Shown: piece after piece, positions 17,347 to 38,445 of the stretch
How the letters are laid out: the number at the start of each line of letters is the position of its first letter
Position numbering within the stretch: the first letter of the stretch is position 1
Assembly (NCBI GenBank): GCA_008632985.1
Contig: QPGO01000343.1
Coordinates: 1 to 43,281, forward strand
Length of the DNA stretch: 43,281 bases
Origin: Psammoneis japonica
Lineage: Eukaryota
Reading direction: 5' to 3'
Translations under genes and position numbers: made by a program
Notes under the pieces: model-generated
The model's database searches: none
What the model was told of the DNA's origin: nothing
Seen by the model: only the letters and a program-made list of their open reading frames with translations

Positions 17347-17596
17347 CACCCCTGTGGTAGGGGAGAATATGGTGATGTCATGGTTACGTGGCAGTTTATA
17401 TCTTATTCATTATATTTTTATATAAATGTCCTCACATTTATTTATGCATTTGTACACAAATGCTAATAGTAGCAGGAAAAATCCTGAACCATGGAATATA
17501 CACATTCGTGTGGATATTAACATTAAAACTCAACGCACGGCGAAGCCGTGCGCGCACAACCACGCACACACACACAGCTCCCCTACCACAGGGGTG
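17347..17596. mobile_element. MITE / non-autonomous TIR transposon (250 bp, 9-bp TSD)
   Basis: Perfect 19-bp TIRs CACCCCTGTGGTAGGGGAG (17347-17365) and CTCCCCTACCACAGGGGTG (17578-17596). TCAACTCAA is directly repeated at 17338-17346 and 17597-17605. The interior is AT-rich and non-coding. Confidence 0.9.
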
Positions 17597-17602
17597 TCAA
17601 CT

Positions 17603-17626
17603 CAACAACAACAACAACAACAACAA
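17603..17626 (+). repeat. (CAA)n microsatellite
   Basis: Run of CAA triplets directly after the MITE. Confidence 0.9.
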
Positions 17627-17714
17627 AGGCGGAAGAAAGATACTGTAGCTAATAATGCGTTGTGTAACTGTGTAACAACAAAACGGGAGACTGTGTAAGT
17701 CAAGTGAACAAGAT

Positions 17715-18113
17715 ATGTCGACCGAAGAATCGTCAGTGTCGCTAGAAGAGCATGCAAACCAACTGCTGGAAAGGGAGAGAAACGCCGCAGATGCGCAGGT
17801 GAAGCGGGTCGTTGAGCAAGCCAACAAGCAATGGGATGAGTTGGAGATGGAGGTTCGCAACCAGTTGAAGGAATCGTCGCAAAAAAATGAGCAAGAGCTG
17901 AAAGAATCGTTGAAAAAGATACAGCAACAACATCAAAAGCAAGAGGCTGCGATTGAGCAGTTTACGAAGCAAATCACTGAGAAGGAAAGCGCGGCCATGC
18001 ACGAATGCAAAGAATTGACACTAAAGTTAAAAGAAGTCGAGGCAAAGAGCGAAAGCTTTCGAAAATCATGTCAAGAATTCGAAGCGAGTTTTCAGGCTGT
18101 CAAAAAGCAGTAG
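17715..18113 (+). CDS. Small coiled-coil protein (132 aa)
   Basis: ATG-started open ORF rich in E/K/Q with heptad character. It may be a truncated gene. Confidence 0.6.
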   Translation: MSTEESSVSLEEHANQLLERERNAADAQVKRVVEQANKQWDELEMEVRNQLKESSQKNEQELKESLKKIQQQHQKQEAAIEQFTKQITEKESAAMHECKELTLKLKEVEAKSESFRKSCQEFEASFQAVKKQ

Positions 18114-18460
18114 CAAGCTGGGTTTCGGTTTGAGCATGGCATTCGGAACCAGCATGAATTGTATGGTACGGGAGAGTAGAACGCCAAGCTTCAGAGTAAC
18201 CATTTGCATTTGTAGGGATCGGTACTCTTCATCGGTATGCTTCTAAGTAGTACAGTAGGCTTTTACTAATTTCTATCTCAGGATTTGGTAGGTGTATGGT
18301 AAGCTATGGTGGCGACTTGTGCTCTTGACTCCATAGTACAAAAGTACCACAACCTTCGCTTGCGCTTTACCCAGTCAAAAGGGATAGCATTGTGTGGTAG
18401 TCAAGATGAATGGGTCTAGCAAAAGAGCCAGAGCCCAGAGGAAATCGTTTGGGTATGAAT

Positions 18461-19169
18461 TCAGCACAGCAACTTCCATTCGTCAGCAACCGTGCCTGGC
18501 GTGGCACCTTCCTTCATGATATCATCCACGCCATTCACCGTTAGAACTCGACCAGATAACTTATCTATTACAATCAAGGTGGGGGTGCCATGCAAGCGAT
18601 CCGTCATACCGAGAGCATCCAGTTCCTTCTTCGCGCACGTCTTGAACAACCTTTTCAGATTTGATCTTTCCTCGACTGCATTGAACGGAATGTAGTCGAA
18701 GACAGAAGGAACATCTACGTAGGAAATAAATTCAATGGCACGCAGAGTTGAGAATGATACGATTTGGTTAAGAGTGACAAGGATTACTGACTCCTCATCT
18801 TCAGTCAATATAACATACGGTAGACGTACAGTTCTTCATTTCTTCAGCAGACGTGTCGCTGCTGACATAGACGATTGAAAACAAGCCGTCTTGATCATTG
18901 ACAACCAGTTTTTCAAGCACAGGAACAACTTCCCAACAATCGTCACACCAGGATGCAGCGAAGAAAAGCCCCACAAATCGCGGTGACGAGTCGCCAAAGA
19001 AATGCGTCAAGCACGGGAACTCGAACACCCACTCATCCCGTGAGAATTGCACTTGTTGTTCTGTCGATAATTCTTTTTGTGCTTTACGTTGTTGTCGCCT
19101 GAGGAAATACCAACAGGCAGTGGCGATGGCTGAAAGGACAAGAATGTCCGTCGTCAATGTCATTCGCAT
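18461..19169 (-). CDS. Nucleoredoxin/tryparedoxin-like thioredoxin-fold protein with N-terminal membrane anchor (two exons)
   Basis: FVGLFFAASWCDDC, SIVYVSSD, YIPF and GTPTLIVID..GRVLTVNG motifs. A GTACGT...TAG intron at 18829-18715 joins the two ORFs in frame (..MKNYVPSVF..). Start is at 19169 or 19163. Confidence 0.85.
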
Positions 19170-19308
19170 TCTCTCATCATCTTCGTAAGGTAACGTGATG
19201 GTATCTTTGTGTTTGACTTTGACTTTGGCCCGTTTTGAAGATATGATATTGTATCTTCTGCTTTTGGTGCAATTTCGCGATTTTTCATTTTCAGCTTTTT
19301 TCAATTGG

Positions 19309-19428
19309 TGACGTCATCCCAAACATCAGCTACCTTTTTCGATTTTCAATTTTTTGCAACATTTTTTAGTTTTGTTAAAATCCATGACGTCATCGTCCTT
19401 CTCATTTTTTTCTTTCGCTCGTACGTCA
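19309..19428. promoter_or_regulatory. Clustered TGACGTCA sites in a divergent promoter
   Basis: TGACGTCA at 19309-19316 and 19385-19392 plus TACGTCA at about 19422, between head-to-head genes. Confidence 0.45.
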
Positions 19429-19659
19429 GCGGCGGCAACTCAATCCGCACCTCATTTTTTTTTCTTTTACAGTATTCTTCCTCTTCACTCTTGTTTGTTT
19501 TTGCCAACAGCAACAAAAGGGAAACAAATGCGAGCATAGAATCGTGTATTTGATCGTTCACATGCTCGAGCATTCATTTTTACTACTGCAGCTTGAGTTG
19601 ATAAGGCGCGGAATCAAATCATTACAAAAGCGTGCGCGACTGCGAAACGATTGAAGAGA

Positions 19660-20931
19660 ATGAGGAGGCATTTGCTTTCGTCCCTCCTGACTTGTCGAAT
19701 TGCATCGTCTGCCGCAGCGTTTCTCGTTCTGGGGCAGACGCTTTTCTTGAATCGCTACATTACCAATAGTCCGTCCAACCGGCGAGCGGGGGACTTTTCG
19801 GCATGCCGTCAGCATGGCAGTATCTTTGCAGGTGTAGTCCGACGAAATGTTGCGCTTTGCGAACAGCAGCAGCAGCAGAAAGATGGCTTTACGACGGAAA
19901 GAACTGAAACAAATCAGCAACCTAGAAACGGTATGGAAAAAGGCAATGAGGTCCAAGACGATGAAAACATTCGGCTACGCCTGACTCCTTTGGATTTCTA
20001 CTTTCAAAAGTACGGATGGTTGCCTCTGCCAAAGACGACGCACAAGGTACTCAAAGACTCGGACGATCAAATCAATTCCCCAGACCGAAAAGGTATTCTA
20101 GTTATTGGAGACGTGCACGGTTGTTTTGAAGAATTGCAGCTCCTCCACAAGGAGGCCGTCGAGGAGAACGACGGTATGGACTTTCGGTTTGTCATTTTGG
20201 TGGGTGACTTGTGCAACAAGGGTCCGTTTCCGGCTCGAGTTATTCGGTTTGTACGACAAGAACCCAACTGGTTAGCGGTACGAGGCAATCATGACAATGC
20301 TGCGTTAGGTGCAGCACTCGGAAATGAATACAGACGAAAACATCCAAAGTACGACTGGGTGCAAGAGGGAGAAAACAGAAACGCAACAGAGACGTCTGAC
20401 AAGATTGTGTTGTCTGACAAGGACGTGATGTGGATGAGTGATTTGCCTTATACCATTACAATACCTGCGTCCATGTTTGGAGACGAAGAAACTGTAGACA
20501 CAGTGGTTGTACACGCCGGTTTCTTACCAGGTGTTCCTGTGGAGGATCAGGATGTACCGAATATGATTCATTTACGAGAGGTAGTAGAAGTGTACAGCAC
20601 CCAAGATGGAGGCGACACGGACGGCAAGCAACTAAAAGTGACTCGCACTTATGCTCCCTATCGGGCTTCTAAACGAGAACGCAATACCGAAGGCGACCCT
20701 CATCCGCTGCCATGGGCTCCAACCTGGAAGGGACCCCAGCGTGTGATCTTTGGTCACGACGCCAAACGTGGCTTTCAGCGGTATGCTGGTGACTGGGCCA
20801 TTGGGCTTGATACGGGCGCTGTGTATGGCAATCAATTGACGGGTATCATCTTACCACAAAAGAAAATTGTGAGTGTCGACGCTGTCGCTGAGCACGTTCC
20901 TGTGAAGGAAGCGCAAGACACGAAAACGTAG
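19660..20931 (+). CDS. Calcineurin-like metallophosphoesterase, PPP/ApaH (diadenosine tetraphosphatase)-like
   Basis: Intact ORF with GDVHG, GDLCNKG, RGNHD, VHAG, FGHDA and GLDTGAVYG motifs. First ATG is at 19660. Confidence 0.9.
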   Translation: MRRHLLSSLLTCRIASSAAAFLVLGQTLFLNRYITNSPSNRRAGDFSACRQHGSIFAGVVRRNVALCEQQQQQKDGFTTERTETNQQPRNGMEKGNEVQDDENIRLRLTPLDFYFQKYGWLPLPKTTHKVLKDSDDQINSPDRKGILVIGDVHGCFEELQLLHKEAVEENDGMDFRFVILVGDLCNKGPFPARVIRFVRQEPNWLAVRGNHDNAALGAALGNEYRRKHPKYDWVQEGENRNATETSDKIVLSDKDVMWMSDLPYTITIPASMFGDEETVDTVVVHAGFLPGVPVEDQDVPNMIHLREVVEVYSTQDGGDTDGKQLKVTRTYAPYRASKRERNTEGDPHPLPWAPTWKGPQRVIFGHDAKRGFQRYAGDWAIGLDTGAVYGNQLTGIILPQKKIVSVDAVAEHVPVKEAQDTKT

Positions 20932-23900
20932 GAGGAAGATCGAAAAGCTCAACATTGCAACTTACAATCACCTTTTCAGGCATGGAGTCGTAAGCACACA
21001 TGTATTAGTTTGTTTCAATTATGCTGTTGTTGTGCTGTGCTCCTCGTTTGCCGCTTATGACTACCGGTAGGGACTCTAGGCACTACATAATCTCTAGAGG
21101 TGAAGTCCCACCGTATTTTGAGATCAGTTTCTCGCTTTTTGGATTGGTTGCCATAACTTGGCGATCTGACATACTGATTAAAAAATTATGTGCGACATCC
21201 TTGAAGGTTTCAACGATAAATGCGCAGCCACGAAAAGCAACCTGTTGCTAGTTTCAAACAAAATCGCAGCGAATCGAAAGACCACACAATTCACGATGCT
21301 TTCACAATCAATCACATCCATGAGGTACAAACAAACAAACAAACAAAAATGAGATACAGCCAATCTACCCCAGTCAAGCCACAAGGAAAAGTCGAGTGAA
21401 CCCGCACTCCAAACCTGGTCATTCCTTGTGCTTTGTGAAGCACTTGGTGGCACAGGATTGCTTGGGTGGATGTTGTTTTGTAAACACCTTTTACTCCTTA
21501 AACCAAATGCTGCATCCTCAGAAACAACATCCAATCCATGAACACTGAAGCAGTGAGCGTTGGCCTTGACCTCAGCTCCAGCCCTGACAGGAGAAGTCAG
21601 AGAGCAACGAGTCATGTCATGTTGCCCATGCTGACAATCATCCCCACTTTGCTCATTGACTGTTGGCTGAAGCCTGTCTCCACTTTGCTCCATTGCCACA
21701 GTCTGTGCCTCCTGAGCAGTCCATTCAACATGATGAGACATCTGCAATTGCATTGTCTGCTGTGACAGCAATTCCTCCTGTGACAAGAGAGATGTGGTTG
21801 TTTTGGATGAGGGCTGTGCATTCAAGAGGTGATGGCCCCTGCATTGGCGCCAACAGCACAACAATCCCTCATTGTGGATGCACAAAAAGAGGGCCAGATG
21901 CTGCACACAACAGCGGCATTTCTTTGGACATGTCCCGGCTTTTTTTCAATGAGCGCTGTGGTGGCATCATGCAAGCAAGCTTGCAGGCAAAACTTGGGCC
22001 TTGTGATGAACTGCCAAAGTCATTCTTGGCAAGGCAGCACAGCATCTTTTTCTCTTTTGCTGGTGCTGCATTTGTGCTCATTGTCAATGGAGGATGCAGC
22101 TCCTGACAATGGATGAGTCTTCTCACACACTGCACTTCTTTCACACAGCACCAACCACATTGACATTGAACGCAAGTGGCCAGCCCAATCTTGTTGGACT
22201 CCAATCCTGGTGAACACAGCCAGGCCCAACATTCACATTGTCTGCATTTTGAGGCACTCGAACAAATGGGGGCAGACAGATTTTTTTGTGACAATTGCAC
22301 CACAGTGCACAGAGCTGGTCTCCTTGTGCATTGCACACTCTCTCCACCAATGCTGTTCTTGTGACTGCTGTCCAGCTCCAAAGCTCATCTTGGTCTTGCA
22401 TTCTTGAAATGTGTGGCCACTGTCATGAACCTGAAATCTGAAACCACAATGTGTGGGTTTTTGCCACCCATGCCATGGCCTCATCAGCAAAACCTGACAA
22501 GCCTGTTGGAACCACTGCAGGACAAGCCAGTCAAATGGATCCTCTGCCAATGACAACCCCAGCAGCAAAAACTCTGTGTGACAGTTGCTGGTGCATGGTT
22601 TCAAAGATCTCAAAAAAAAACAGATGTGGTTTGAAACATTTGCTTTTTGATGCCACCACTCCAAAATTGCTCCTCAAGCAAAAGACTCGTGCACAGTGAC
22701 TGCATCCAATCTGTTGGCAAAACCCAAGCCATTCACCCAACAACAAAAAATGTTGCTCATCCCCAAAAAACATCCAAAGTCTTGAGCTTTGGGAGAGGCC
22801 CAGGCTGCTGCTGCCCTTGGAGGTTTTGTTTTGGCTGTTGCTCCCCCGCAATGGAGAAGGTGGTGAGTGTGTCCATCAGCTACAGGGATCATTGAACTTG
22901 CATGCTTGCTCTGCTCTTGTGGCAGAATGGAGAAATGCTTGGAAGCAGATGTCTTGATTTTGTTGCCCACATCAACCCAGCTGTGTCAAGAACAGAGAAG
23001 CATCAGCCCAAGCAGAGTGCCAACACATGCCACCTTCAAAGACAACGCATCAATTGTGAAGCCACTGGAGCTGCAAGTGTTGCATGGCACTGGAAGCAGC
23101 CCTTGCAACTGTGTGCAGAACACAACTGGTCAGAGAGAAAGTGCGCACCTCTTTGATTTTTTCATGTTGCTGAATGGCAGGGCAGCCACATCCCACAAAA
23201 ACTAAATTGCAGCACCCCACAACTCTGACTTTGAGTTGGCCTGGCAACCATTGCAAAAAGCAAGATGCTTGATGGCTGCTTTTGGCTTTTGTTTGGATGT
23301 GTCTGGCTGATGTGCAACAAGCAGACAAACAGGGCCTTGTCGTTGCACAGCTTTCTCTTGGAAACCATTGGTGGCATTGTCCTCTTTGTGACATTTGGGC
23401 TTGCATGTGAAGTCATTTCGAGAGTGATCTTTGTGAGGCTCAATCTCACCAAAACACCAAAATGCAATGTGCAGCTCCGCTTCTTCCTGCTCATGATCAA
23501 TCTGAGCAGTCTGACAATTTGCAGTGGCTGGTGACTCTCCTCCAGCCCAAAAAAATTGATGATGTTGTGCCTGTGTTGGTTGAAGCAGATGAGTGGGGAT
23601 CAAAAGCAATTTGTCAAATGTGGGCTGTTCACAATGTCTGGGATGCATTGCTCCTTGCCACAGACCATGACAGGCACTGGAGAAGCACAGCATTGAAGAA
23701 GGCATGACTCTCCAGGCTCAAGGTGCCTCTTCCCAAGCTTGCAACCCAACTGCGCAGGTCTCACATCTGAAGGATTGCCAAAAATGAAAGCAAGCAATGT
23801 GCTTGATGACAACAGTCAGAACCTTGGTTTTTCAAATCAAAGACTGGTGCTGGCTGCAAAGCTGCATTGAGAGCTGAGGGAGGCAAGCCTGCAGGAGTTT

Positions 23901-24911
23901 CTTTTTACCTCTGCCATCTGAAAAACAAAGTTGTTTTTGTTCAGAGTTGAAATTTGCTTGATGAGAAGTTTGTGCTCTGGTCAAATGCTCCTTCACTGTG
24001 AATGAGTGGCTTTTTAGCCACAATTGGCCAAATCAACATGGTGGGAAGAAACCAGGCTCAGGGAAATTTGTTGTCACAGTGCACGTGGGCTCTTGACAAG
24101 ATTTGTTTTGAACTCAACCACAGTGCAACAATTGTGAATGTCAGAGTGTCAACTGTTGACCAAGCTGGCAAAGTGATGGGGAACAACAGTGAATGAAAGG
24201 TGCTGGTTCATCACTGTGCACATGCACCTGAGTTGATCTCTTCAACCATTGTCACTCATTGGCTGGAGCAAGCCAGCAATTGCATTTGTTCATTGTTTGT
24301 CAACTGGCACACATTTTGTAATTTTGGTTTTCAGCAATGCCAACTGCTTTCAAGCCTGGTGACATTTGACATGTGACACATGCTCTTGTCCCATGTTCGC
24401 TGTTTTTGCCCCCTCTGTGATTCAAGCTGTCATCTCATTGTCTGCCCCATTGTCTCTTGCAGTCATCTGTTTTGAATCTTGGTGTTGTTGGCTGTGCTGG
24501 CATTGCATCATGTTTGGCTCTTTTGTGTTTCAAAGAGAGCCAGTTTTTGTGTGACAGCTTTTCATTGTGAGACATGATGCCAATCCCCAGGAAAAAAAAG
24601 CCAGCAGAGAAGTTGTCTGTTTGGTGCTTTTTTTTGTGATCACAGCCACAATGCTGCCATTCCTGCTCACCTGTGTGCAGTGTTGCAGCACTTTGTTTCT
24701 CATCCTTGGCTGTTTTAAACAATTTGTGTGGAGATTCAAGAAACAAAGCAAGGTGGCACAAAATGCCAGGTTGTTGTTTCCTGCAACAAGCTGCTTGCTC
24801 CTGTGTCACAAATCTGACCTCCTTTCTTGCCTTTGTTCTGGCAGCTTTTCTTTGTTGTTTTTGAGTGCTGAGTCCTGGATGTTGTCAGTGCCTTCCCGCA
24901 ATGTCACAATT

Positions 24912-27737
24912 GTGAAAACAACAACACAAAGCACCAATCAATGTCACACAGGCACCCATCTCAAGTCACAGAGTTGGTTGTGCAAGTGGCTGCAAACACC
25001 AAGCTGTGCCCAGCAGGTTGGCAAAGACTTGAGCTCTTCAGCTTCAGAGTGAAGTGGCCCCATGATGGCAGCACCCACCAACCCAACAAGCAACAGCAGG
25101 CTGGGAGCATGACAACTGGCGGTCCTTTTCAGACCCCAGAGGCAACACTCCAAGAACTGTGGTTGCAAGCACTGAGAAGTGCAAGACCAGCATTGTGCAT
25201 TTGTGGTGCCTTGTTGCACCCTTTCACCCAGAAACATCACACTTCAAACTTCAAAGCCCCAACTCCAGAGTGAAAGGACTGCCTGAGGATGGTGCCAACC
25301 AGGCAACTGCAAGCCAAGGACATTGGCGGTCTCTTGTGGATCCCAGGAGACACTGTCCACAACAACCATGGTTGAGCAGTGCGATGCCTGTTGTGTGTGC
25401 TTGTGCCCCCCTGCACCACCTTTTGTCCTGACAGGAGAAACAGACTTCAGCTTCCCAACTCTGCGGCAAAAGGGCAACATGGTGGTGCCAGTCAACACAA
25501 AACAGCTGCAAGCAGAGGACACTGGGCCTGGTGGTGCATGCTTCTGAACACATTTTCCACCACTTTTGCCACTGAAATTTCAAACAGCCAACATCTTTGA
25601 ATGAACCATGTGATGCTGGATCTTGAAAGCAAACAGCTTTTCTTCAATGTGAAAATGACAATGCAAAGCACCAATCAATGTCACACAGGCACCCATCTCA
25701 AGTCACAGAGTTGGTTGTGCAAGTGGCTGCAAACACCAAGCTGTGCCCAGCAGGTTGGCAAAGACTTGAGCTCTTCAGCTTCAGAATGAAGTGGCCCCAT
25801 GATGGCAGCACCCACCAACCCAACAAGCAACAGCAGGCTGGGAGCATGACAACTGGCGGTCCTTTTCAGACCCCAGAGGCAACACTCCAAGAACTGTGGT
25901 TGCAAGCACTGAGAAGTGCAAGACCAGCATTGTGCATTTGTGGTGCCTTGTTGCACCCTTTCACCCAGAAACATCACACTTCAAACTTCAAAGCCCCAAC
26001 TCCAGAGTGAAAGGACTGCCTGAGGATGGTGCCAACCAGGCAACTGCAAGCCAAGGACATTGGCGGTCTCTTGTGGATCCCAGGAGACACTGTCCACAAC
26101 AACCATGGTTGAGCAGTGCGATGCCTGTTGTGTGTGCTTGTGGCCCCCTGCACCACCTTTTGTCCTGACAGGAGAAACAGACTTCAGCTTCCCAACTCTG
26201 CAGCAAAAGGGCAACATGGTGGTGCCAGTCAACACAAAACAGCTGCAAGCAGAGGACACTGGGCCTGGTGGTGCATGCTTCTGAACACATTTTCCACCAC
26301 TTTTGCCCCTGAAATTTCAAACAGCCAACATCTTTGAATGAACCATGTGATGCTGGATCTTGAAAGCAAACAGCTTTTCTTCAATGTGAAAATGACAATG
26401 CAAAGCACCAATCAATGTCACACATGCATGCACCCATCTCAAGCCACAGAGTTGGTTGTGCAAGTGGCTGCAGACACCAAGCTGTGCCCAGCAGGTTGGC
26501 AAAGACTTGAGCTCTTCAGCTTCAGAATGAAGTGGCCCCATGATGGCAGCACCCACCAACCCAACAAGCAAGAGCAGGCTGGGTGCACAACATTTGGCGG
26601 TCCTTTTCAGACCCCAGGCAACACTCCAAGAACTGTGGTTGCAAGCACTGAGCAGTGCAAGACCAGCATTGTGCAACTGTGGTGCCTTGTTGCACCCTTT
26701 CACCCAGAAACATCACACCACAAACTTGAAAGCCCCAACTCCAGAGTGAAAGGACTGCCTGAGGATGGTGCCAACCAGGCAACTGCAAGCCAAGGACATT
26801 GGCGGTCTCTTGTGGATCCCAGGAGACGCTGTCCACAACAACCATGGCTGAGCAGTGCAATGCCTGTTGTGTGTGCTTGTGGCCCCCTGCACCACCTTTT
26901 GTCCTGACAGGAGAAACAGACTTCAGCTTCCCAACTCTGCAGCAAAAGGACAACATGGTGGTGCCAGTCAACACAAAACAGCTGCAAGCAGAGGACACTG
27001 GGCCTGGTGGTGCATGCTTCTGAACACATTTTCCACCACTTTTGCCCCTGAAATTTCAAACAGCCAACATCTTTGAATGAACCATGTGATGCTGGATCTT
27101 GAAAGCAAACAGCTTTTCTTCAATGTGAAAATGACAATGCAAAGCACCAATCAATGTCACACATGCACCCATCTCAAGCCACAGAGTTGGTTGTGCAAGT
27201 GGCTGCAGACACCAAGCTGTGCCCAGCAGGTTGGCAAAGACTTGAGCTCTTCAGCTTCAGAATGAAGTGGCCCCATGATGGCAGCACCCACCAACCCAAC
27301 AAGCAAGAGCAGGCTGGGTGCACAACATTTGGCGGTCCTTTTCAGACCCCAGGCAACACTCCAAGAACTGTGGTTGCAAGCACTGAGCAGTGCAAGACCA
27401 GCATTGTGCAACTGTGGTGCCTTGTTGCACCCTTTCACCCAGAAACATCACACCACAAACTTGAAAGCCCCAACTCCAGAGTGAAAGGACTGCCTGAGGA
27501 TGGTGCCAACCAGGCAACTGCAAGCCAAGGACATTGGCGGTCTCTTGTGGATCCCAGGAGATGCTGTCCACAACAACCATGGTTGAGCAGTGCGATGCCT
27601 GTTGTGTGTGCTTGTGGCCCCCTGCACCACCTTTTGTCCTGACAGGAGAAACAGACTTCAGCTTCCCAACTCTGCAGCAAAAGGGCAACATGGTGGTGCC
27701 AGTCAACACAAAACAGCTGCAAGCTGAGGACACTGGT
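24912..27737 (+). repeat. Tandem array of about 737-bp units (about 3.8 copies)
   Basis: GTGAAAA...CAAAGCACCAATCAATGTCACAC recurs at about 24912, 25649, 26386 and 27125. Near-identical ORFs recur at the same spacing (25323/26060/26799/27534). Confidence 0.95.
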
Positions 27738-28640
27738 GGCATCTGACAGACCCCCCAGGCGACACTCTGAGAGCTGTTGTTGGGCATTGCAAGATTGATC
27801 TTGTGGTGTTGTGGCCCCATGTTGTCACCTTGTCCTCAATGGCAGCAGACTTGAGCTGCCAAACCCAGAGTGAGAGGACTGCATGATGACACCAGCCAAC
27901 CTGACAGCTGCAAGATGAGTGCATTGGTGGTGTCCAGTGGCCCCAGGTGTGATTCAAGAACCACAAGGTCAATCTTGCAGTGTTGTGGCCCCATTTCACC
28001 TTGTCCCCAACAAAAGCAGATGTGAGTTTCTGAACTCAAGGGTGAAAGGAAGGGCCCCATGATGGTGCCAACCAGCCTCACAAAACAGCAAGCTGGGGCA
28101 CTGGTGGTCTCTGATGGACCCCAGGCAACACTTTAAGAGCTGCAACTGAGCATTGCAAGAAGGTTGACTTTTGTGGCATTGTGGCTGCCCCGCCCATGTT
28201 GTGTTGTCCCCAACAGAAGCAAACATGAGCTTCCAAGCCCCAGAGTGAAAGGACCCCATGATGGTGCCAACCAACCTGACAACAGCAAGCTGAGGACACT
28301 GGTGGTTTCTAGTGGGCCCCAGGCTGGGCAAGACTTTGAGAACTGCAGCTGAGCATTGCAAGGTTGATCTTGTTCTTGTGTTGTGGCCCCATGTCATCTT
28401 GTCCCCAACCACAGCCGTCTTTGCTTTTTTCCCAGCTCCAGAGTGCAAGGATCCCATGACAGTGCCAACCAACCTGACAACTGCAAGCAGCCAGAGGGCA
28501 TTGCCAGTGTTTGGCAGACTCCAGGAGAGATTTGAAAAATGTGGTTGGGCATTGCAAGGTTGATCTTGAGGCATTGTGGCCCCATGTCACCTTGTCTGCA
28601 ACAGCAGCAGAGTTGAATTTCCAAACTCCAGAGTGACTCA
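27738..28640 (+). repeat. Diverged monomers of about 170-200 bp, related to sub-repeats of the 737-bp unit
   Basis: CCAGAGTGAAAGGACCCCATGATGGTGCCAACC-like motif at about 27864, 28037, 28239, 28438 and 28628, with TTGCAAG.TTGATCTTG and GTGGCCCCATG motifs between them. Confidence 0.8.
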
Positions 28641-28879
28641 TTCAAAGGCCCAATTGCTGAGTTTAACAGCAGGTGAGCAAAACTTCAAAATGCAACATGC
28701 TGGGAATGCCAGAGACATGGAGTTGTTTTGCAGTGGCAAAATGGGGGCTTGTTGAGGAGAGTGGAGAAATTTTCAGAGGCACCTGATTTTTGAAACCATT
28801 TTCTCTTTGTTGGAAGGAAAGAAAACCTGCTGCAGCTGGGCCAGTCATCTTCCATTTTATCCTGATCTAGAGCTCAAGC

Positions 28880-29400
28880 AAGAATGGATCTCATGGAAGG
28901 ATTGGTTGAGGTGTGAGCCCAAAATGTGAAGTTGAGCTTTGTTTGTTGTGTGCCACACAATTTTTGGAGGCTTCTTGTCAAGCTTTCCTGCCATGAAAGT
29001 TGTTGAGTGGGTTTTTATGGCCATTCTCATTGATGACACAGTTGTTGCAATGTGGCACCAATCATTGTCCATGCTGCTGACCTTTGCACAAAGTCTCAAC
29101 ATCAAATGAGTTTTCCATCATCAAAGCCTTGGTTGCTGTCACTTGTGAGTCTGGGCCTGGAGTTGGGTGCACAGAAAATGCTTGCCCTTGCTTCTCTCCA
29201 ACAAGCAAAATTGGTGCCTTCACTTTGACAAGCATGGCATCCAAACAACCCTCTGCAATCTTCTGCAAGAGACAAAAACAAAAAAGAGCTGTGCAGACAG
29301 TGGACATGTTTGGTGTGAAATCTGTGTTGTCAGGCACATCCAAAACAGAGTGCACTGTGCAAGCATGGACCAACACAAAACACCAAATCAAATCACAGCC
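28880..29400 (-). pseudogene. Possible Copia gag-like relic
   Basis: HSVLDVPDNTDFTP...ALFCFCLLQK and IATTVSSMR...HSTTFM loosely resemble diatom Copia gag once C/H are read as former Y. The similarity is weak. Confidence 0.2.
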
Positions 29401-30125
29401 ATGTTGGCCCCCCTGACAACTTGGTGCTCAAAAAAGTGCTTGTGTGGCACATTTGTTGTCAATTGACAGCTTCAAATTGACTTTGCATGAAGTGCAAATG
29501 GACACATGCTGCAATCTGGGTTGACATGACAAGGTGAAACCAGTTGGCAAGCATTCATGATGGCAGGGGAGCAAGTGACAACATGGCCATTGTGGGGGCT
29601 GCACCTCAGACATTGTGAGCTCAACTCTAGAGTGCAAATTGACATTTGACAGAAGGGAAGGATTCAAGTTTGTGCTGCACTGTCATTGAAAAGGTGTTGG
29701 TTCAACAATTTTTTCCCATTTTTGTCAGACATGCAATGAGGTCACAGTGAGTTGCAACAGGGTTGCACCATTGTCATGCAAGAGACAAATGCAGCAGAAA
29801 TGCTGAAAAGAAGATGCAATGGGCAATCAAGCTGAAGCTCCTCTTCACACAAATAAATCAAATCTAAGCAAGGTGCTGGGCCACAAAACAAAACACATTG
29901 CAAATCCATGGCCATTGGAAAAAGTGGCTGTCAACCCAAATGTCAACTTTGTGGCTGAAAATGAGTGGGCCAGCATCTGAACATTGTTCTCAGAGCTGCA
30001 GTGACACCTGTGCAGAGCACAATCACAGGCACAGAAATCATGTTTCTTGTCAACTGATCTTCTCATTGACAGCAAAAACATGTTGCAGATGGGGCTCTGG
30101 CTCAAAACCACAGACTTGTTTGCTG

Positions 30126-33100
30126 ACTTGTGAGCAAATTTTGCACACATTGTTGTTGCATTTGCAGAAACTGGGCATGCACAATTTGACATTTTATCTT
30201 CTAAATCAACCTTTGCAACATGTGCACAATCACACAATGCGCACTTGGATTCTTCTTGATTTTTGATGGCACGTCATCCTCAAGACAGCAGCAAGAAACA
30301 GCAATTTTGTGAGCTCTCTCAACCTTGATTTGAGGGCTTGCAAGTGCAGTGGGGGCTTGCACATGCAAGGATGGCTTGGGACTTTGGGCCCAAGAATGTT
30401 GTCACAAGAGCAAATCAGCCCAAGAATGTTGCAACAAACAATGCAGGTCATGGGAAAGCAAGGAAAAGGCTGCATGGCCACATGAGACTGGCCCAAGCAG
30501 GGCTGCACAAAGAAACCTGCCAGGGTCTCACACAATGTTGACAGGGCTGTTTTGTTGATGATGTCACAACAACTGTCATTGTTTGCCACCAGACAGGGTG
30601 TTGTTGGATGGAACAACAACTTTGGCTGCAAAGAGCAAGTGTGAAACTTGAGCATGTCAGGGTGCCCAGAGAGAACAAGATGTTTGCTGGTGTGCTGAAA
30701 AGCAATGCCAAATGGAGGGTGTGCTGTCAGTTGAATGCCATGCCCTCCATCTGGTGGTTTTGTGCTCCCTTGTCTTGAACTCTGACAGAATCTCAGCATC
30801 CAGAGTTCTGCCCAAATGTGTCTGCAGCTGCACTGCTGGGTTCAGGCAAGAGCAATGAGAGACCCTCCCACTGCTGCTTCTTGAGTCAAATTGTTGACAA
30901 TCTCTCTGTTTTTCTGAGAAAGCACCAACGTTCATTGACGGCCATTGTGTTGCTCAGAGGGGAGTCAGCTTCTGTGACAAAGAAGGGGCAAGCAGCACTT
31001 GAAGACACTGGGGACTGGCTCAAAACTTTCAGCAGCAATGTGGCTCTTGATGAGGAAAAAGCAGTTGTCATCATGGGTGACCTCCTGCAATGAGCAATGA
31101 GCAGCACAAGAAGTGTGCAGTGCCAGGAGAGTGGAAGTGCCTGTGATGACAACAATGTGAAAAGGCATTGTTGAGCCAAACATCACTCTTTGGAAATGAC
31201 AATTTTGGCAATGTCAAAATTGTTTTCAGAGCTGCAGCTGCAGTGACCACCTCAATTGATTTTTGAAAAAATTTGACACCTGTGGAGGGCACAACATTGC
31301 AGGTGTGGAATTTTGTTTCTTGTCAACTGATCTTCTCATTGAGAGCACAAACATGTTGCAGACAGCATTTTGCTTGATTGATTGTCTTCTCACCCAAGCA
31401 ACTCAGAAAAGTGTGTGTGGCTCTTCTCCTCACACACAATGACATTGGGTTGATTTTTCAGGAGTCACATGACAACCCATCATTTTCACTGAGTTGTTTG
31501 TCTGTCCCGCTCTTCTTCTGGCATGTCAAAAATGCATTTGATTGGAAAAAATGTGTGCAGAGTGTGCACGCAGTTCTTCTTCAACACTCCTGTTGATGGC
31601 ATGCTGCAGGTTTCTGAGCACATTGTCCACTGCCACATTTGTTCACACCACCATCATTTCAAAACATGCAGATGAATGAACCTTCAAAGAGCCAAGGTCT
31701 TTGAATGAACTTTGTGATGCCAGATCTTGAAAACACAAATTGGCTTTTCTTCATTTTCTTTTGCCAACTTGTGAGCAAAGTTTGCACACATTTTTGTTGC
31801 TTGTCACATTTGCATGCAAAATTTGACAGTTGTCTTCTGAATCAACCTTTGCAACATGTGCACAATCACACAATGCACTTGGATCATTTTTGATTTTTGT
31901 GGCACATCATTCCCAAGACAGCTGCAAGAAAGATTGTTTTTGTGAGCTGGCTCAACCTGGATTTGAGTGCTTGCAATTGCAAGGGGGGCTTGCACAAGCA
32001 AGGACAGCATGGAATTTTTGGCCCAAGAATGTCATCATCAGAGCAAATCAGCCCAAGAATGTTGCCACAAGAGCAGGTCATGGGAGAGCAAGGAAAAAGT
32101 GGCATGGCCACATGAGACTGGCCCAAGCAGGCTGCAGCAAAAAAACCCTGCAAAGGTCTCACACAAGGATGCAGGGCTGTTGTCAATGTCATGACAGCTG
32201 TGATCATTTGCTGCCACCATGCAGAGCATTGCTGAACAAAACAAAAGCTTTGACTGCAAAGAGCAAATGCAGAACCTGAGCATGATGGGGCCATGCAAAA
32301 GATGTTCGCTGGTGCTAAAAAGAAGGACCCAACAAAGGGTGCACTGTCAGTTGAATGTCATGCATCCATCTGGTGGTTTTGTGCTCCCTCTTTTTGAACT
32401 CTGTGCCAAGATCTCAGCATCCAGAGTCCTGCTCAAAAATGTCTGGAAATGTGCTGCTGGGTTCAGTCAAGAATGATGAGAGAACCTCTCAGAGAAACTG
32501 CCAGCATTGATGGCCACTGTGTTGCTCAGAGGGGAGCCAGTCTCTGTGACAGAGAAGAGACAAGCAGCAGTCCAAAACACTGGTTTGCTGCTGCAAAGCT
32601 TGCAGCAGCAATGTGACATGATTTTTGAAAAGGAAGAAGCAGTTGTCATGGTGAGTGGCCTCTTGCAAGCATCACAAGTGAGCAGTGCCAAGAAAGCAGA
32701 AGTGCCTGGGATGACACCAGGACAAATGGAGTGGGTGCTGTGATGGCCATGTGAAAAAGCAGGATTGAGTCAAGTGCCACTCTTTGATCAAAAAGCTCAG
32801 AAGGGGTGTGTGCAAGCTTTTCCCTTGTTTTCAAAAGTTTGGCATCTTCTCAGGTGTTGTTTGGTGTTGGAGTTTGCAGCATTGTCAGCTGGAAGGTCGC
32901 GGGGGCTTGGGTGGTCAACCATGTGAGGAGAAATGCACACCTTGAAATCAAAGTGCATGGGCACATCAAAACGCCATTTCAAAAATTGCACAAAGCCAGG
33001 AGGGAGCAGTGGCTGCAGACTGTTCACCAGAAGCAGAGGGACACCTTGGCTGTTGACTGGAGGACTGCTGTGTTCAGCCATGTGAGGAGTCACTGGGCCA

Positions 33101-33260
33101 GGAAACACCAGTCATTTGAGCCAATGTTGTGGCACACATGCGCACCTGAGTGCACTTGCACTTTTTCATTTTGAGCAGCTGAGCAACTCCAACAAAAAGC
33201 ACTGGTCTCAGGGAAGAAAATGATGACAGCACACATGGCAACAAAGACTGGGTCATTGAC
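30126..33260 (+). mobile_element. Ty1/Copia-like integrase-region relic, with about 1.1 kb duplicated in diverged form
   Basis: 30126 to about 31200 aligns with 31767 to about 32790 (e.g. GGCATGGCCACATGAGACTGGCCCAAGCAG; TGTGTTGCTCAGAGGGGAG). Fragments HGHMRLAQAG, LLRGESASVTKKG and VNHVRRN...KTPFQKL resemble diatom Copia pre-integrase/integrase segments. The duplication is solid; the family call is tentative. Confidence 0.4.
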
Positions 33261-33510
33261 AAGTGGGCCAATCAGGCAGCTGCCAAAGATGAGTGATTTG
33301 AGGGTGAGCTGAAAAACATTGAGCAGAGCACAACACAGCAGCATCACAGACAACAATGTGCTCACCATGACAGTGCCCAACTGACTGATCTTGTGGCTTT
33401 TTGATTTGATGGGCAAGGAGACCAAACACATGGCAAAAGTGAGAGAGACCCAACAAAAGCAAGCTGACATGAGCAAGGGTGGACAATGAGCACATTGTTG
33501 CTGTCAGTCA

Positions 33511-33532
33511 GAGAGAGAGAGAGAGAGAGAGA
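33511..33532 (+). repeat. (GA)11 microsatellite
   Basis: Perfect GA run. Confidence 0.95.
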
Positions 33533-34226
33533 GCAGCTGGAGCATCACACAGGTCTGTGTCTCTGCATTGGCAGAGTCTGCCGCATGGCTGCTGTCAACA
33601 TTGGTGAGGAGCCCAAGCTCAAAAAATGGGAAAAGCCGATGTTGTTGAGATCCATGACAGCAGGGGAGCATGACAAAAGCAAAAAAAGAACCCTGGACAA
33701 GCAAGAGAGTGACGAGACAATTGTTGACAACGGCGGCATTTGAGGTTTGGTTAGCCACTCTGAAGTTGTGCTGCAGCTTGGTCATGAACAATGAAACAAA
33801 GCAGAGCAAACAAGGTGAAAAAGAAGCTCCAGTTTCCATGAGCGCCAAATGCTCCAGGCCCTGCCTGTGTGGGGTGCAGCCAGCATGGCTGGGTCGAGAG
33901 GTGGCGGATCAAAACACCGAGAGAAAAGAGGAAAGCACAAAGCATGAAAAAGCTGCAGCCGAGAAAAAGCCCTTTGGGATTTTTGGTTGAGGGATCTGCG
34001 ATTTTCGAAAATTCAAAAAGATTTGGCTCGCTGGATCGATGCGATAGATAGACTAGATTGTTGACCATTCTTGTCTTGCTTTTCTTCTTTGCGTCGGTTG
34101 GGCACGGGCGCCTGCGCGAAATAAAAGAACCTCGTTTGGGCGTCCGACCGTTGTCAGTCGCAGCTTACAGTATTTACAATGGCGTCGCCCTGAAGATCGA
34201 AGTTTCGGCCACCACGAGAGACAGTG

Positions 34227-35963
34227 ATGAGAGGCTTAAGGAGGAAACCCGTAAGCCTTTTTACCAAAGTGATACTGGTTGCTTCCAGCATCTTCCAAGA
34301 AGTAGCACCTACTGTTTATTCTGTCCACGAAAACAAAAATACTTTTTCGTGCACGAGTGCATCTCCTGAGAGAACCTGTGAAGCAGATGAGACGACCCGT
34401 TCCTTCGACCGAGTCCCACACTCATGTCGTCTCGTCATGGCCGAATCATCTATTCCCAACAGTGGCTGGGGTGTCTTTGTCATGGCGGAAAAACCTCGAG
34501 GCGTTCCTGTTTCTTTCGGTGACGTCGTGATTCATGTTGCAGATATCAACGCGACTTATGCACACGGACTACGTCGGCTACTCCAAGATTATGCCTGGGA
34601 CAGCCAAGAAACGGGTGGCTTCTATGAAGGCAGGAAGGTCTTTTCTGTGATACCTGGGATGGGCATGCTAGCAAACGGTCTCGGCGGCGCTTCTGGACCA
34701 AACATTTTGCCCTTTGTCCCCCAGGTGAGTGAAGGCGATCTCTTTCGAACAAGCTCGCCAGGTGCAGGAGCAATCACGCACTATCACAACTACACGTTCT
34801 TTATACAACGGATCATTCCAGAGGGTGGAGAAGTGTTTGCGAATTACGGCAGAGACTGGTTTCAAGAACGCAGTTCAAGCTTGAACGGGATAGACGAGCA
34901 GACAACCAAAAGATCAGTCGAATGGTTGAAGGAGAATGCTTGGTGCCTCGATAATTTGAAACCGGGTACTTCGGAAAAAGGAGATGCTGGGCGGGGCGCC
35001 TTTGCGACAAGGCTCTTAAAGAAGGGATCGGTAATTGCCCCCGTACCCGTGGCTGTGATTGATTCACGTTCCAGCCTTTTCCTCTCCACGCGAACAAGGC
35101 CCAGAACCAGGGCGGAGAAGCTACAGCTAGACGACGACTCCGATGTTGTCGTTGATGGTTACCAGCTCCTGCTCAATTATTGTCTTGGTCATTCCAATTC
35201 TTCCCTCCTCCTTTATCCGTATTCGCCATTGGTCAACCTAGTCAACAATGACAGACAAAACTACAATGCCAAGCTACAATGGTCTCAGCATTCTATAGAC
35301 AACGGTTGGATTGACAAGACCTTAGCAGAGATTCGTTTATCTAATAAGACGAGTCTCTTGCTGGAACTTGTTGCTACGCAGGATATAGCCCCGGGACAAG
35401 AAGTCTTCATCGACTATGGAAAGGCTTGGCAAGAAGCGTGGGATCGTCATGTTGCATCTTGGCAGCCTGTCGAAGACGCAGACTTGTACACAACTGCTCA
35501 CGTAATGGAAGATGTTGTGGCAAGTCGGCTACGTACACAACATGAACAGGCGACTCATCCATACCCTGAAAATCTTTTTACATCCTGCTTTTATCGATAC
35601 AGTGAGAGAAGGGATAAGGTCGTGGTGGGTACAGCTGGAGAAGCCTCGGTATTTGAATGGACATTTTCACCTCGAATATTTGAACTCCGTAATCTAAGGC
35701 CCTGTACAGTCTTAGCCCGTGACGAGGTTCAAAGTGGAAAAGGGACTACGTATCTGTTCACAGTCTTGATTCGAAATCGTTACGGTCTCACTCTAGAGGA
35801 ACGGGTTCCAATGGGTGAGATGCATATTGTCACAAAGGTGCCGCGGCAAGCAATTAGGTTTTCAGACAAGATTTATACCACGGACCAGCATCTCGAGAAC
35901 GCATTTCGCCATGAGATACATATTGAAGACTTTCCTAGCCAGTGGATGGATCGTCAAGGGTAG
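34227..35963 (+). CDS. Protein with two SET-like domains and probable N-terminal signal/anchor (diatom-type)
   Basis: SSIPNSGWGVF...GGEVFANYG, then DAGRGAFATR...LLLNYCLGH..LYPYSPLVNLVNN...ATQDIAPGQEVFIDYG. Intact ORF with a hydrophobic N-terminus. Confidence 0.85.
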   Translation: MRGLRRKPVSLFTKVILVASSIFQEVAPTVYSVHENKNTFSCTSASPERTCEADETTRSFDRVPHSCRLVMAESSIPNSGWGVFVMAEKPRGVPVSFGDVVIHVADINATYAHGLRRLLQDYAWDSQETGGFYEGRKVFSVIPGMGMLANGLGGASGPNILPFVPQVSEGDLFRTSSPGAGAITHYHNYTFFIQRIIPEGGEVFANYGRDWFQERSSSLNGIDEQTTKRSVEWLKENAWCLDNLKPGTSEKGDAGRGAFATRLLKKGSVIAPVPVAVIDSRSSLFLSTRTRPRTRAEKLQLDDDSDVVVDGYQLLLNYCLGHSNSSLLLYPYSPLVNLVNNDRQNYNAKLQWSQHSIDNGWIDKTLAEIRLSNKTSLLLELVATQDIAPGQEVFIDYGKAWQEAWDRHVASWQPVEDADLYTTAHVMEDVVASRLRTQHEQATHPYPENLFTSCFYRYSERRDKVVVGTAGEASVFEWTFSPRIFELRNLRPCTVLARDEVQSGKGTTYLFTVLIRNRYGLTLEERVPMGEMHIVTKVPRQAIRFSDKIYTTDQHLENAFRHEIHIEDFPSQWMDRQG

Positions 35964-36292
35964 CACTTCATTTTGTATGACTGGTACGCTTTGCGTTTCG
36001 GGAGGTGGTAGGCATAGAGTACCTAGAAAATTTAAAATAGAGAGAAAGCATCAGGCGCGACATGATAGAAAAAGCGTACTCGGAGAGGACCTGGATCAGA
36101 TGTCGAGTGCAGTCGTTTGAGAAGCAAGAACAACAAGAACTGGGCGAAAGCTGTTAACTGTAACAGGAGAAACGAGAACGCGACGTCCCAGTTATTTCTC
36201 TCTCTTAATTATTGTACATTTATACGATCGGCTTGCCTCTTGAGCTCCCCTGCCGATCGTTCCGCAGCAACCACCACCACCACCACCACAAG

Positions 36293-38445
36293 CTAGGTGT
36301 CGGTGTTTCTTGTTACAGTCGTCAGGTTTTCACGGTTGTGCCAAGAGTCGTTCCTTGACGCCACGTTTTTTGGGATGCCGCCTTTTTGCGTTGAGCGATA
36401 ACTGAAACCATCACTGTGTTTCTGGATATCGCCGTTGCGTGGTGAAAAGGCGCCCTCTTTCTTCGTTTTCCTTCCTTTGTTTTCTTGCTGTCCCTTCAAG
36501 CGGTCTTTCGCTTTGGCAAGATACGATTTTGAAGCGGCGTTGTCGGGGTCGAAGCGCAAAGCCGATGTGTAAGCTTCAACCGCACCTTGGTAATCTTCCA
36601 AAAAGAATCGTGACAAGCCCAGCCGTGCGTAGGCTTTGCCGTAGGTGGGCTTTAGAGTTAGACTTTTCAAGGAATCCCTCTCCGCATCCACGTAACGTTC
36701 CAAGTAACAGAGAGCGGCAGCCCGGTTGGAATAATATACATGGGAATGCCGTCCATCCGGGCACAATTGAATCGCTTCCGAGTAAGCAGAGAATGCATCT
36801 TGATACTTGGCCGCGGCCATGTACGAATTGCCATCATTCTTGTGTTTCTCTGCTTGGCGTTCTTCGTGCGACTTTTTCGGAGTTACACTTACTGCCAGCT
36901 GCAATGCAACATCGTCGTCCCGTCTAGCATGCGCGGCGCCAACTTCAGCTTGTTGGTCTGAAACGCGCTTTGTGGCCTTTTCTAGGTACTTCTTGCTGCT
37001 TTCGTTGTTTGGATCATATTTGAGGCTCGTCGTGTAAGCCAAGATAGATTCAGCGTAGTTTCCCATCAAGAAATGTGATAAACCCAGTCTAGCATGAGCC
37101 TTGGCATAGTCGGGTTTGAGTTCTAAACTGCGTTCCGAATCCAGCATGGCCTCCTTGATCTTTCTTTGACTCAGGTGAGCAGCCGCCCGGTTGCTCAAGA
37201 AAACGTGGGAACTGGGACCAGCGGGGCTGAGAGTCAGAGCCGAAGTGTACATTTCAACAGCCTTATCGTACTTTTTGGCTTGCATATAAGAGTTTCCTCG
37301 CGTTTTGAATTTTTCTGCTTCGACCTCGTTCGCTGGACGAGACTCCGAAGGGAAAGCCTTGTGATTGGAGACGGATATTGCTTCAACAGTGAAGTCATCA
37401 GGGTACGTTCCCTGCGTCTGCGATGGCATTTCTCTGAAGCGCTGCCGCCGCACCTGGTCAGCTCGCATCTTTCTCCGGGCATCTTGGCGCGCGGGAGCAA
37501 AACCTTGATGATTCATTATTTCAGACCCGTGCCTGCCATGCATGTGAAGATCTCCCTGCCCGGATGTTGCTTGGGCGACCAACTTGGTACGAAACTTGTT
37601 CGCGACCTTTGCATAGCGTTCCTCGTACAAAAGAGTGGAGAGATCCCTCTTTGTTTGTTCGTCGTCGTATGCTGCATTGATAGCTTCCTCCTCCTTATCC
37701 AAGTCACGAAAGAAACCTTTGGCTTCAACAGCGTGGAAAAATTGATCAAACAGCGGGGACTGCACCATTTCCTCTTCAGCATCACAGCGTGATCGGGCAC
37801 CAAATTCAGACAGACCAGCAGCAACTAGCTCTCCCAAAGTCAAAGGTCCCGCTATCGAAGGGCCCGCTGCAAGACCATTGAGTGGGTAAAAGCGGTGGCT
37901 ATTGCTAACGTGATCATCGTCGTACGGGTACCAACTCCACTGATCCTCTTCCTCCTGGGGTTGCTTGGATTCGTCGTTCACCCCGTCGTTTTGCAACGGC
38001 TCGTTCGGGTTCTTCAGGTACATGATTTCTTGTTGAATTTCTTCGAGATGAGGGATGACCAGTCCGTCTAGACGAGGCTCTTCTGGTGGAGGAGGCGAGA
38101 GTCCTTCTTCTTCGAGGTGCTGTTGTTTCTGTTTCCGAGAAAGATCGATTGAAAAATGCGGATCATTCTTCAAAGACAAAGGGATCCTCGTAAATGATCG
38201 CGAAAGAGCATATACAGCGAGACTGAGATATTCAGCGTCAATACCTTCTGCCTCGAACAAATCTTCTGAGGAGTAAGCTCGTCTCAAGCCCCGTAAGTAG
38301 TCTAAGCATAGCAACACTAACTGAGCCTCGCTAGGACAGCCGTTGTTATCAAGTTCTTCTGGATACGAATTATCCGAGTGCTCTTCAGGGATCTGGTTAG
38401 AAAGAGAGGGAGCATGTCTGCCCAGGACGCGGAAGGAAGCGCCAT
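36293..38445 (-). CDS. SGT/SGTA-like TPR co-chaperone with two TPR triplets
   Basis: AEKFKTRGN..YDKAVEMYTSAL..SNRAAA..YAKAHARLG and a second block AEKHKNDGN..SNRAAA..YGKAYARLG. The likely ATG at 38445 is one base out of frame with ORF 36293-38317, suggesting an indel near 38400. Confidence 0.8.

Follow-up and report, generated by a model that had tools for sequence, protein, structure and literature searches.

Contig QPGO01000343.1 of Psammoneis japonica (assembly GCA_008632985.1), which was analysed over its full length of 43,281 nt (positions 1 to 43,281 of the forward strand) and is here called the window, contains two bounded zones from which the dinucleotide TpA has been largely or almost completely lost. 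The TpA sites that survive in these zones are distinguished by their flanks: sites between a preceding pyrimidine and a following purine (YTAR) persist best, sites between a preceding purine and a following pyrimidine (RTAY) are the first to disappear, and sites with one flank of each kind (mixed) fall in between. Very probably, this pattern reflects a flank-biased, TpA-specific transition process that acts on bounded silent regions. The overall explanation that we favour adds to this process a separate decay of CpG and, as the agent of TpA loss, a putative DNA adenine deaminase; we give the composite a slightly better than even chance of being right. Taken on its own, adenine deamination as the chemistry of the TpA process, which is suggested by sequence patterns, falls somewhat short of an even bet.

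Two Zones of TpA Loss

The composition of the zones was expressed as symmetrised dinucleotide ratios (rho), and the window was scanned for ratios of observed to expected counts (O/E) in 1-kb intervals. Flanking, mostly genic DNA of the window (1-3000, 14001-21000, and 34001-43281) served as the control. The following regions are distinguished:

21500-33760, no strand: zone A, a TA- and CG-depleted, CA/TG-rich block that occupies the space between two genes
3001-14000, no strand: zone B, TA-depleted with CG largely retained; core at 5001-10000
10700-11900, no strand: TA-normal island within zone B

Zone A (12,261 nt) contains 19 TA and 51 CG dinucleotides, but 2889 CA and TG. Its rho values are 0.02 for TA, 0.07 for CG, and 1.89 for CA/TG, as compared to 0.61, 1.02, and 1.10 in the control, and its 1-kb intervals show O/E of 0.00-0.08 for TA, 0.00-0.20 for CG, and 1.7-2.2 for CA and TG. 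The longest run without TA, at 24716-28134, extends over 3418 nt. Depletion of CG in 21500-33760 is thus as strong as that of TA, a feature which an earlier sequence-only reading of this DNA (the first-pass annotation) had not brought into its finding. AA/TT (rho 1.26 vs. 1.17 in the control), CA/TG, and GA/TC are not lost; apart from CG, TA is the only dinucleotide to disappear, which fits a T directly 5' of the affected A. The GC content of the zone, 43-52%, is the same as in the flanks. Zone A ends about 0.2-0.6 kb short of each neighbouring gene.

Zone B (approximately 3001-14000) shows TA O/E of 0.03-0.39 and CG O/E of 0.64-1.14 in 1-kb intervals. Its core retains 34 TA in 5 kb (rho TA 0.11, rho CG 0.77), and its edges are milder than the core (TA O/E 0.24-0.39); a single N stands in the assembly at 3117, at the left edge. 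Counted per 100 nt, the island contains mostly 5-14 TA, with 1 and 3 in two of its bins, whereas its surroundings hold 0-2, and the interval 11001-12000 reaches O/E of 0.86 for TA and 1.55 for CG. Either the island was inserted more recently, or it is a patch that was spared. Outside zones A and B, TA O/E is 0.40-0.75 and CG O/E is about 1.

Flanking Bases and TpA Survival

Among the 19 surviving TA in zone A, 12 are YTAR, seven are mixed (three TTAT and one each of TTAC, CTAC, GTAA, and ATAA), and none is RTAY. The 801 TA of the control divide into 113, 436, and 252, respectively, and the difference in class composition is significant (chi-squared p = 1.3e-8; Fisher's exact test for YTAR, p = 1.9e-6, and for RTAY, p = 0.0015), also against a flat expectation of 25% (YTAR, p = 4.8e-4; RTAY, p = 0.004). 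This bears out the first-pass annotation, which had described the survivors as mostly YTAR with RTAY essentially gone and had located them correctly to within 1-2 nt: CTAG occurs at 28309, 28867, and 29627, and also at 4808, 5440, and 13236, TTAA at 24715, 28133, and 28663, and CTAA/TTAG at 23202, 24014, 29864, 30201, and 32315. A further CTAA/TTAG at 33751 was absent from its list, as were the surviving GTAA at 24319 and ATAA at 29854. The zone B core repeats the picture with 16 YTAR, 17 mixed, and one RTAY among its 34 survivors. When zone A and the zone B core are taken together and each site is read on both strands, a pyrimidine precedes TA in 80 of 106 half-sites, compared to 662 of 1602 in the control (p = 5.8e-12).

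Relative to control density, survival of RTAY, mixed, and YTAR sites is 0.000, 0.025, and 0.167 in zone A, 0.015, 0.15, and 0.55 in the zone B core, and 0.38, 0.44, and 0.96 at the zone B edges. Equal depletion of all classes, which had been named beforehand as the outcome that would speak against a flank effect, is not seen in zone A, and the flank bias is therefore real. In a Poisson model, in which each TA faces two independent half-site risks and which was fitted jointly to four data sets, RTA half-sites (equivalent to TAY on the other strand) are about 4.6 times as mutable as YTA half-sites (equivalent to TAR; kR/kY = 4.6). Equal half-site rates are rejected by a likelihood-ratio test (p = 2.6e-21), while separate rates for all four preceding bases give no better fit (p = 0.37). 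The faster mutation of RTA half-sites thus explains why RTAY vanishes first, mixed sites next, and YTAR last, and the process would accordingly be one that reads at least one base beyond the TA dinucleotide.

Several observations weigh against a strict form of this rule. YTAR sites are themselves heavily lost (83% in zone A, 45% in the zone B core), so that the rule is quantitative only: TAY is preferred, but it is not an obligatory target. The 5'-TAY-3' motif proposed by the first-pass annotation therefore holds as a preference of about 4.6-fold and not as the target motif, since TAR sites are hit as well. In addition, T is in excess at position -2 of surviving TA (TTTA, TCTA), at 0.51-0.58 in the window vs. 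0.27 in the control. Because this excess is strong in the window but weak in the zones of L002, a metagenome locus of another lineage that is introduced below (0.32 vs. 0.25), the real motif may be wider or depend on DNA shape. Survivor numbers are also small: 19 in zone A, 34 in the zone B core, and 46 in the L002 zones.

The excess of T at -2 is what would be expected if there were no intrinsic flank specificity at all, and YTAR were instead spared by DNA shape or occupancy, regenerated, or kept by selection. T-tract or A-tract flanks (TTTA, TCTA) would open less readily or be bound, and the survivors are indeed rich in T-Y-T-A; moreover, the half that should be hot also survives at some mixed sites with TCTA, and survival of CTAC/GTAG is 0.32 in the zone B core. 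We nevertheless regard such an explanation as rather unlikely. The -2 effect is weak in L002, whereas the order of the classes is constant in the four data sets, which differ in depth of depletion. New TAs that arise from the CA and TG of zone A itself would be YTAR in 24% of cases, as opposed to the observed 63% (p = 3.8e-4), which argues against regeneration, and selection is disfavoured in that the zone yielded neither a coding nor an RNA function that could impose it. As a separate observation, TCTAC recurs among the survivors of the zone B core, at 8209, 8567, 8678, 8866, 8928, and 9257; it also accounts for four survivors in the L002 zones, where a fifth is CCTACC. TCTA may protect the whole site, though one half of TCTAC should be hot.

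TpA Loss by Transitions

If the flanking DNA is taken as the ancestral composition, the losses and gains in zone A can be set against each other. Mixed sites lost 270 TA and 362 CG and gained 465 and 166 CA/TG; sites of the R..Y type show 308 losses and 311 gains, and those of the Y..R type 216 losses and 260 gains. The losses of TA and CG thus match the gains of CA and TG, which implies that the loss went via transitions. In the mechanism that we propose, a regionally targeted process at the DNA level would turn TpA into CpA or TpG in zones A and B by T:A>C:G transitions only, and one hit would be enough to end each TpA site.

Which base is changed is a separate question. The first-pass annotation had read the survivors as resisting A>G in TAY, i.e., T>C in RTA. 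However, A>G in RTA would leave the same survivors, YTAR being cold in either case. The two readings differ in what they produce at mixed sites: A>G in TAY predicts RCAR, while A>G in RTA predicts RTGR. With T>C at RTA in 82 of 100 events (82:18, f = 0.82), 1648 RCAR and 1132 RTGR are predicted for the pooled data and 1620 and 1101 are observed (z = -0.6 and -0.7). An even split is rejected (z = 2.5 and -4.3), as is the opposite reading (z = 5.5 and -7.8). The excess of RCAR over RTGR, 465 vs. 166 in zone A, 68 vs. 35 in the zone B core, and 40 vs. 31 in L002, indicates that zone A drives the pooled result and that the zone B core and L002 are intermediate. Other points limit this result: taken by themselves, the zone B edges speak for A>G in RTA (RCAR 22 vs. 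RTGR 61), directly polarised mixed-site cases are few (three for and one contrary), and the product test assumes a control-like ancestry as well as an even decay of CG on both strands. A>G in TAY, or equivalently T>C in RTA, is thus favoured by the pooled products but not settled. A runs test gave no sign of strand-coherent stretches of CA or TG in the zones, which resemble the controls in this respect.

Sequence Comparisons Between Repeats

The zones contain three sets of repeats in which changes can be compared between copies:

8235-8604, plus strand: direct repeat of 370 nt, left copy; perhaps a long terminal repeat (LTR)
12599-12968, plus strand: right copy of the direct repeat, 370 nt
24911-27736, plus strand: TA-free tandem array within zone A, about 3.8 copies of a 737-nt unit
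30119-32719, plus strand: older internal duplication in zone A (30119-31154 vs. 31760-32719)

The two copies of the direct repeat in zone B share 94% of their bases and are identical in purine/pyrimidine code: they differ by 22 transitions, without any transversion or gap. The differences are of the types CA vs. TG at the same site, TA vs. CA/TG (five sites), and CG vs. TG. Since many CGs are intact in both copies, most of the CA-vs-TG flips there began as TA. The flanks of the flip sites in the repeats are spread over all classes and are uninformative. Between 8235-8325 and 12599-12689, one copy has TG and the other CA at seven of eight flip sites; this coherence is anecdotal, because the zone-wide runs test gave no support.

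The copies of the tandem array are 96-98% identical, and neighbours differ at two to three pyrimidine-purine (YR) dinucleotide sites (CA, TG, CG); CA-vs-TG flips make up three of the eight YR-dinucleotide differences in the array. The small number of these differences implies that the array expanded, or was homogenised, after the loss of TA. By comparison, the older duplication shows 74.5% identity (BLAST), with 98 transitions, 67 transversions, and 15 CA-vs-TG dinucleotide differences. When the window was compared with itself in purine/pyrimidine code, none of its normal parts proved to have a mutated counterpart hidden elsewhere in it, and for most of zone A, too, a second copy is missing from the window even at this level.

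CpG Loss as a Separate Process

The two dinucleotide losses vary independently between regions. The zone B core combines a TA rho of 0.11 with a CG rho of 0.77, while L002 shows the reverse at 3001-4500, where CG O/E falls to 0.10-0.32 and TA O/E only to 0.36-0.50. The two losses are therefore separable, and a second process, the decay of CpG to TpG or CpA, would have acted in zone A in addition to the TpA process. The pattern fits ordinary decay of methylated CpG, presumably at methylated cytosines: CG loss is accompanied by a gain of CA and TG, and the effect of the flanks is weak, as expected for such decay (at most 1.8-fold, p = 0.017). A preference for TCG, which was checked because of the context of an amphioxus deaminase (BjADAT2, see below), is likewise weak (at most 1.8-fold). 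Decay of methylated CpG would account for the CG loss in zone A and for some of the CA/TG gain there. It cannot, however, remove TA, and zone B loses TA while its CG rho is 0.77.

Replication in Other Assemblies

Eighty metagenome loci, amounting to 618 kb in total, that encode relatives of a SET-domain protein beside zone A were compared:

34224-35963, plus strand: gene for a SET-domain protein, right flank of zone A (Pfam SET, E = 3e-9)

Two of these loci, L002 and L010, originate from two assemblies, are 99.26% alike over 8.7 kb, and represent one lineage; their SET protein is 48% identical to that of the window. Both carry short zones with the same signature, e.g., 0 TA, 5 CG, and 119 CA and TG at 12001-12500 of L002. 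In the zones of L002, which were chosen by dinucleotide thresholds alone, the 46 TA comprise 24 YTAR, 22 mixed, and no RTAY sites, as compared to 167, 349, and 143 outside the zones (chi-squared p = 2e-5; Fisher's exact test for RTAY, p = 3.3e-5). The corresponding survival is 0.00 for RTAY, 0.36 for mixed sites, and 0.91 for YTAR. The flank-dependent mutational process that the first-pass annotation had proposed is therefore supported not only by the half-site bias but also by a second zone and by another lineage. Among the other loci of the 80, no such zones were found, which means little, because most of the contigs are short and gene-dense.

The zones also differ more between sequences than their surroundings do. 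Of the 13 mismatches between L002 and L010, eight lie in 1050 nt of zone and five in 7660 nt elsewhere (p = 3.2e-5), and three of the 13 set TA against CA or TG (GTAC/GCAC, GTAG/GCAG, CTAG/CTGG). Contigs of a public run, X1 (about 57x), carry zone A and differ from the window at 27 of 1378 nt in the zone, but at only 20 of 6835 nt in the flanks (p = 2.9e-10). Weaker constraint on non-coding DNA may explain part of the zone divergence in both comparisons, and the window itself may have been assembled from the sample of run X1; the X1 differences are thus taken only as a sign that the zone sequence is real and still changing. They include several sites with CG in one sequence and TG or CA in the other, as well as adjacent double transitions at 22170-22171 (AC to GT), 22707-22708, and 23315-23316 (both CA to TG), which suggest two-step flips via a short-lived TA or CG. 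Summed word depth in X1 rises from about 57 nearby to about 3000 at 17276-17639 and to 250-460 at 24192-24900; although summed word depth does not equal copy number, both stretches are likely high-copy repeats.

Given these data, it is scarcely credible that the signature arose by chance, from composition, or as an artefact of assembly or base calling. The survivors are few, and X1, as a possible second view of the same sample, leaves some room for such an explanation. However, three different nulls are rejected, and the differences in X1 at about 57x coverage occur in contigs that do contain the zone. With zone A present in these contigs, and with L002 and L010 drawn from two further assemblies, the sequence cannot be put down to an error of a single assembly.

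Known Systems and Candidate Mechanisms

Hypermutation at TpA has a precedent in the chlorarachniophyte Bigelowiella natans. According to a preprint on mutation-accumulation lines, the mutation rate of two viral insertions is about 1000-fold above that of other genomic DNA; A>G and T>C make up 230 of the 231 de novo mutations, all 230 of them on TpA, and clusters poor in TpA but rich in CpA and TpG mark older events (10.64898/2026.01.13.699255). An ADAT2-like deaminase is proposed there as a hypothesis, and the words trinucleotide, flanking, CpG, and diatom do not occur in the main text (10.64898/2026.01.13.699255). The cut-offs of this preprint pick out 15 of the 43 1-kb intervals of the window, 13 of which are consecutive (starts 21001-33001) and cover zone A. 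Both systems share T:A>C:G changes at TpA, sharp bounds, and a loss of TpA coupled to a gain of CpA and TpG. They differ in the host, which is a rhizarian in one case and a diatom-like stramenopile in the other, and in depth: TA rho in an insertion of a nucleocytoplasmic large DNA virus in B. natans is 0.45, compared to 0.02 in zone A. The targets in B. natans are viral, whereas no viral or transposon domain was found in zone A, which is also CG-poor. Moreover, the mutations of B. natans were seen de novo, while the process in the window is known from its traces in the sequence.

Three known processes were weighed and rejected. Fungal repeat-induced point mutation (RIP) resembles the process in the window in being regional, restricted to transitions, and dinucleotide-specific on silent or repeated DNA, with repeat copies mutated independently. 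However, RIP turns CpA into TpA, and the DNA becomes AT-rich (PMC2621366), whereas the window runs from TpA to CpA and TpG. With TA removed, CA and TG raised, and GC as in the flanks, the direction is opposite, and RIP was rejected.

The error hotspot of polymerase eta, WA>WG (W, A or T), would accommodate A>G at TA if error-prone repair synthesis were recruited to the zones. AA and TT should then have suffered as well, yet they are undepleted, and the direct repeat shows no transversion in 22 changes; in B. natans, too, transitions account for 230 of 231 mutations. Nor can the TA loss be tied to the repair of deaminated CpG, because zone B loses TA but little CG. Mutagenesis of this type, rejected on account of the untouched AA and the lack of transversions in the repeat pair, is in our judgement very unlikely.

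A third candidate is ADAR-like hyperediting, in which a retroelement is edited as a double-stranded RNA copy and the changes become fixed when this copy is reverse-transcribed. TAG is the favoured triplet of ADAR, and sites that bear it (CTAG, TTAG) are found among the survivors. The direct repeat of 370 nt and the weak RT_RNaseH fragment, both in zone B, are in keeping with a retroelement, and ADAR favours U before the edited A (10.64898/2026.01.13.699255). However, the repeat copies, if LTRs, would have started out identical and yet diverged later with the same signature, the zones extend well past the element, and zone A lacks a retroelement domain. Survival of TAG and divergence of the copies after duplication led to rejection of this candidate, which we hold to be extremely unlikely.

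What agent might act at R-T-A-Y in DNA? The first-pass annotation had listed a DNA adenine deaminase, a mutagenic modification of adenine or thymine, and an error-prone polymerase as candidates. In the mechanism favoured here, it would be a polynucleotide adenine deaminase that acts on DNA and converts A to hypoxanthine, which is read as G; this enzyme would require a 5'-T, prefer a 3'-pyrimidine, and be recruited to silent chromatin. Deaminases of the TadA/ADAT2 family convert A to inosine (I), which is likewise read as G, and the natural tRNA site of TadA, U-A-C, resembles the hot context in its T-A-Y form. To our knowledge, no natural regional DNA adenine deaminase has been described. Two further points count against an ADAT2-type enzyme. 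The tRNA sites of eukaryotic ADAT2/3 mostly have a purine after A34. Furthermore, BjADAT2 of amphioxus, the only ADAT2 for which editing of DNA has been shown, prefers adenine in a GAA context and cytosine in TCG, neither of which is TA (PMC10354150). The idea of an ADAT2 gains nothing from this example, because the preferred contexts are GAA and TCG.

The same traces could in principle stem from chemistry on thymine, as T>C at RTA and A>G at TAY are symmetric in sequence data. The T in R-T-A would then be modified to 5-hydroxymethyluracil or 5-formyluracil, e.g., by a TET/JBP-type dioxygenase, and read as C; 5-formyluracil does mispair with G. Oxidation of thymine should, however, leave some transversions or repair scars, whereas none of the 22 changes in the repeat pair is a transversion, and the sole experimental precedent proposes deamination, albeit as a hypothesis. 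We consider a thymine-directed mechanism quite unlikely.

In literature searches, no TpA depletion or hypermutation in diatoms and no flank rule were found, and the B. natans preprint was the sole precedent; TpA-only hypermutation has thus far been confined to one preprint and one rhizarian alga. The present data extend it by a TpA trace in a diatom-like stramenopile and by the flank rule. Given the deeper trace in the window and its presence in a second diatom-like lineage, the process may be widespread among protists of the stramenopile-alveolate-rhizarian (SAR) group. The order RTAY > mixed > YTAR, with its factor of about 4.6 per half-site, provides a fingerprint against which mutations can be checked and deaminases or dioxygenases screened, and it distinguishes the TpA process from the accompanying CpG decay, on which flanks have hardly any influence. 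A possible, though doubtful, extension is that diatoms and chlorarachniophytes share an old genome defence, a kind of RIP in reverse: a chromatin-guided enzyme would deaminate adenine (or modify thymine) at R-T-A-Y in duplex DNA and so erase TA from silent or foreign DNA. If this were true, the enzyme would be the first from nature to edit adenine in DNA within a defined context of four bases, and a natural editor from A:T to G:C would be of interest for base editing.

Gene Content of the Window

Besides the SET-domain gene, the following genes lie near zone A:

19651-20931, plus strand: calcineurin-like phosphoesterase, left flank of zone A (Pfam Metallophos, E = 2.5e-15)
36293-38317, minus strand: TPR protein, open reading frame (ORF) near zone A

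The 1-kb intervals at 19001-21000, which hold the phosphoesterase gene, show TA O/E of 0.40-0.62. Further ORFs near zone A encode an NmrA-like protein and an M50B-like peptidase, and the ORFs around the zone are intron-free. Within zone A, translation in six frames, with stops read as X, gave no credible Pfam family; its sole Pfam row, a one-stretch match to an IFT140 beta-propeller (27.1 bits, cut-off 27), is taken as chance. No Rfam families or tRNAs were found, and none of the window ORFs scanned encodes a deaminase.

A scan of 53 ORFs in 2752-19974 yielded a thioredoxin-like domain in one flanking ORF, while zone B gave only a sub-threshold WD40 match and the weak RT_RNaseH match. The latter (E = 2.5e-5, at the curated cut-off) belongs to the ORF at 11113-11622, which lies in the TA-normal island between the copies of the direct repeat; the three plus-strand frames of 8605-12598 held nothing beyond this fragment. 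The best named relatives of the SET-domain protein are all from diatoms (Fistulifera, Seminavis, Thalassiosira, Nitzschia, Epithemia, and Cyclotella), with 38-48% identity, and its best unnamed match reaches 52%.

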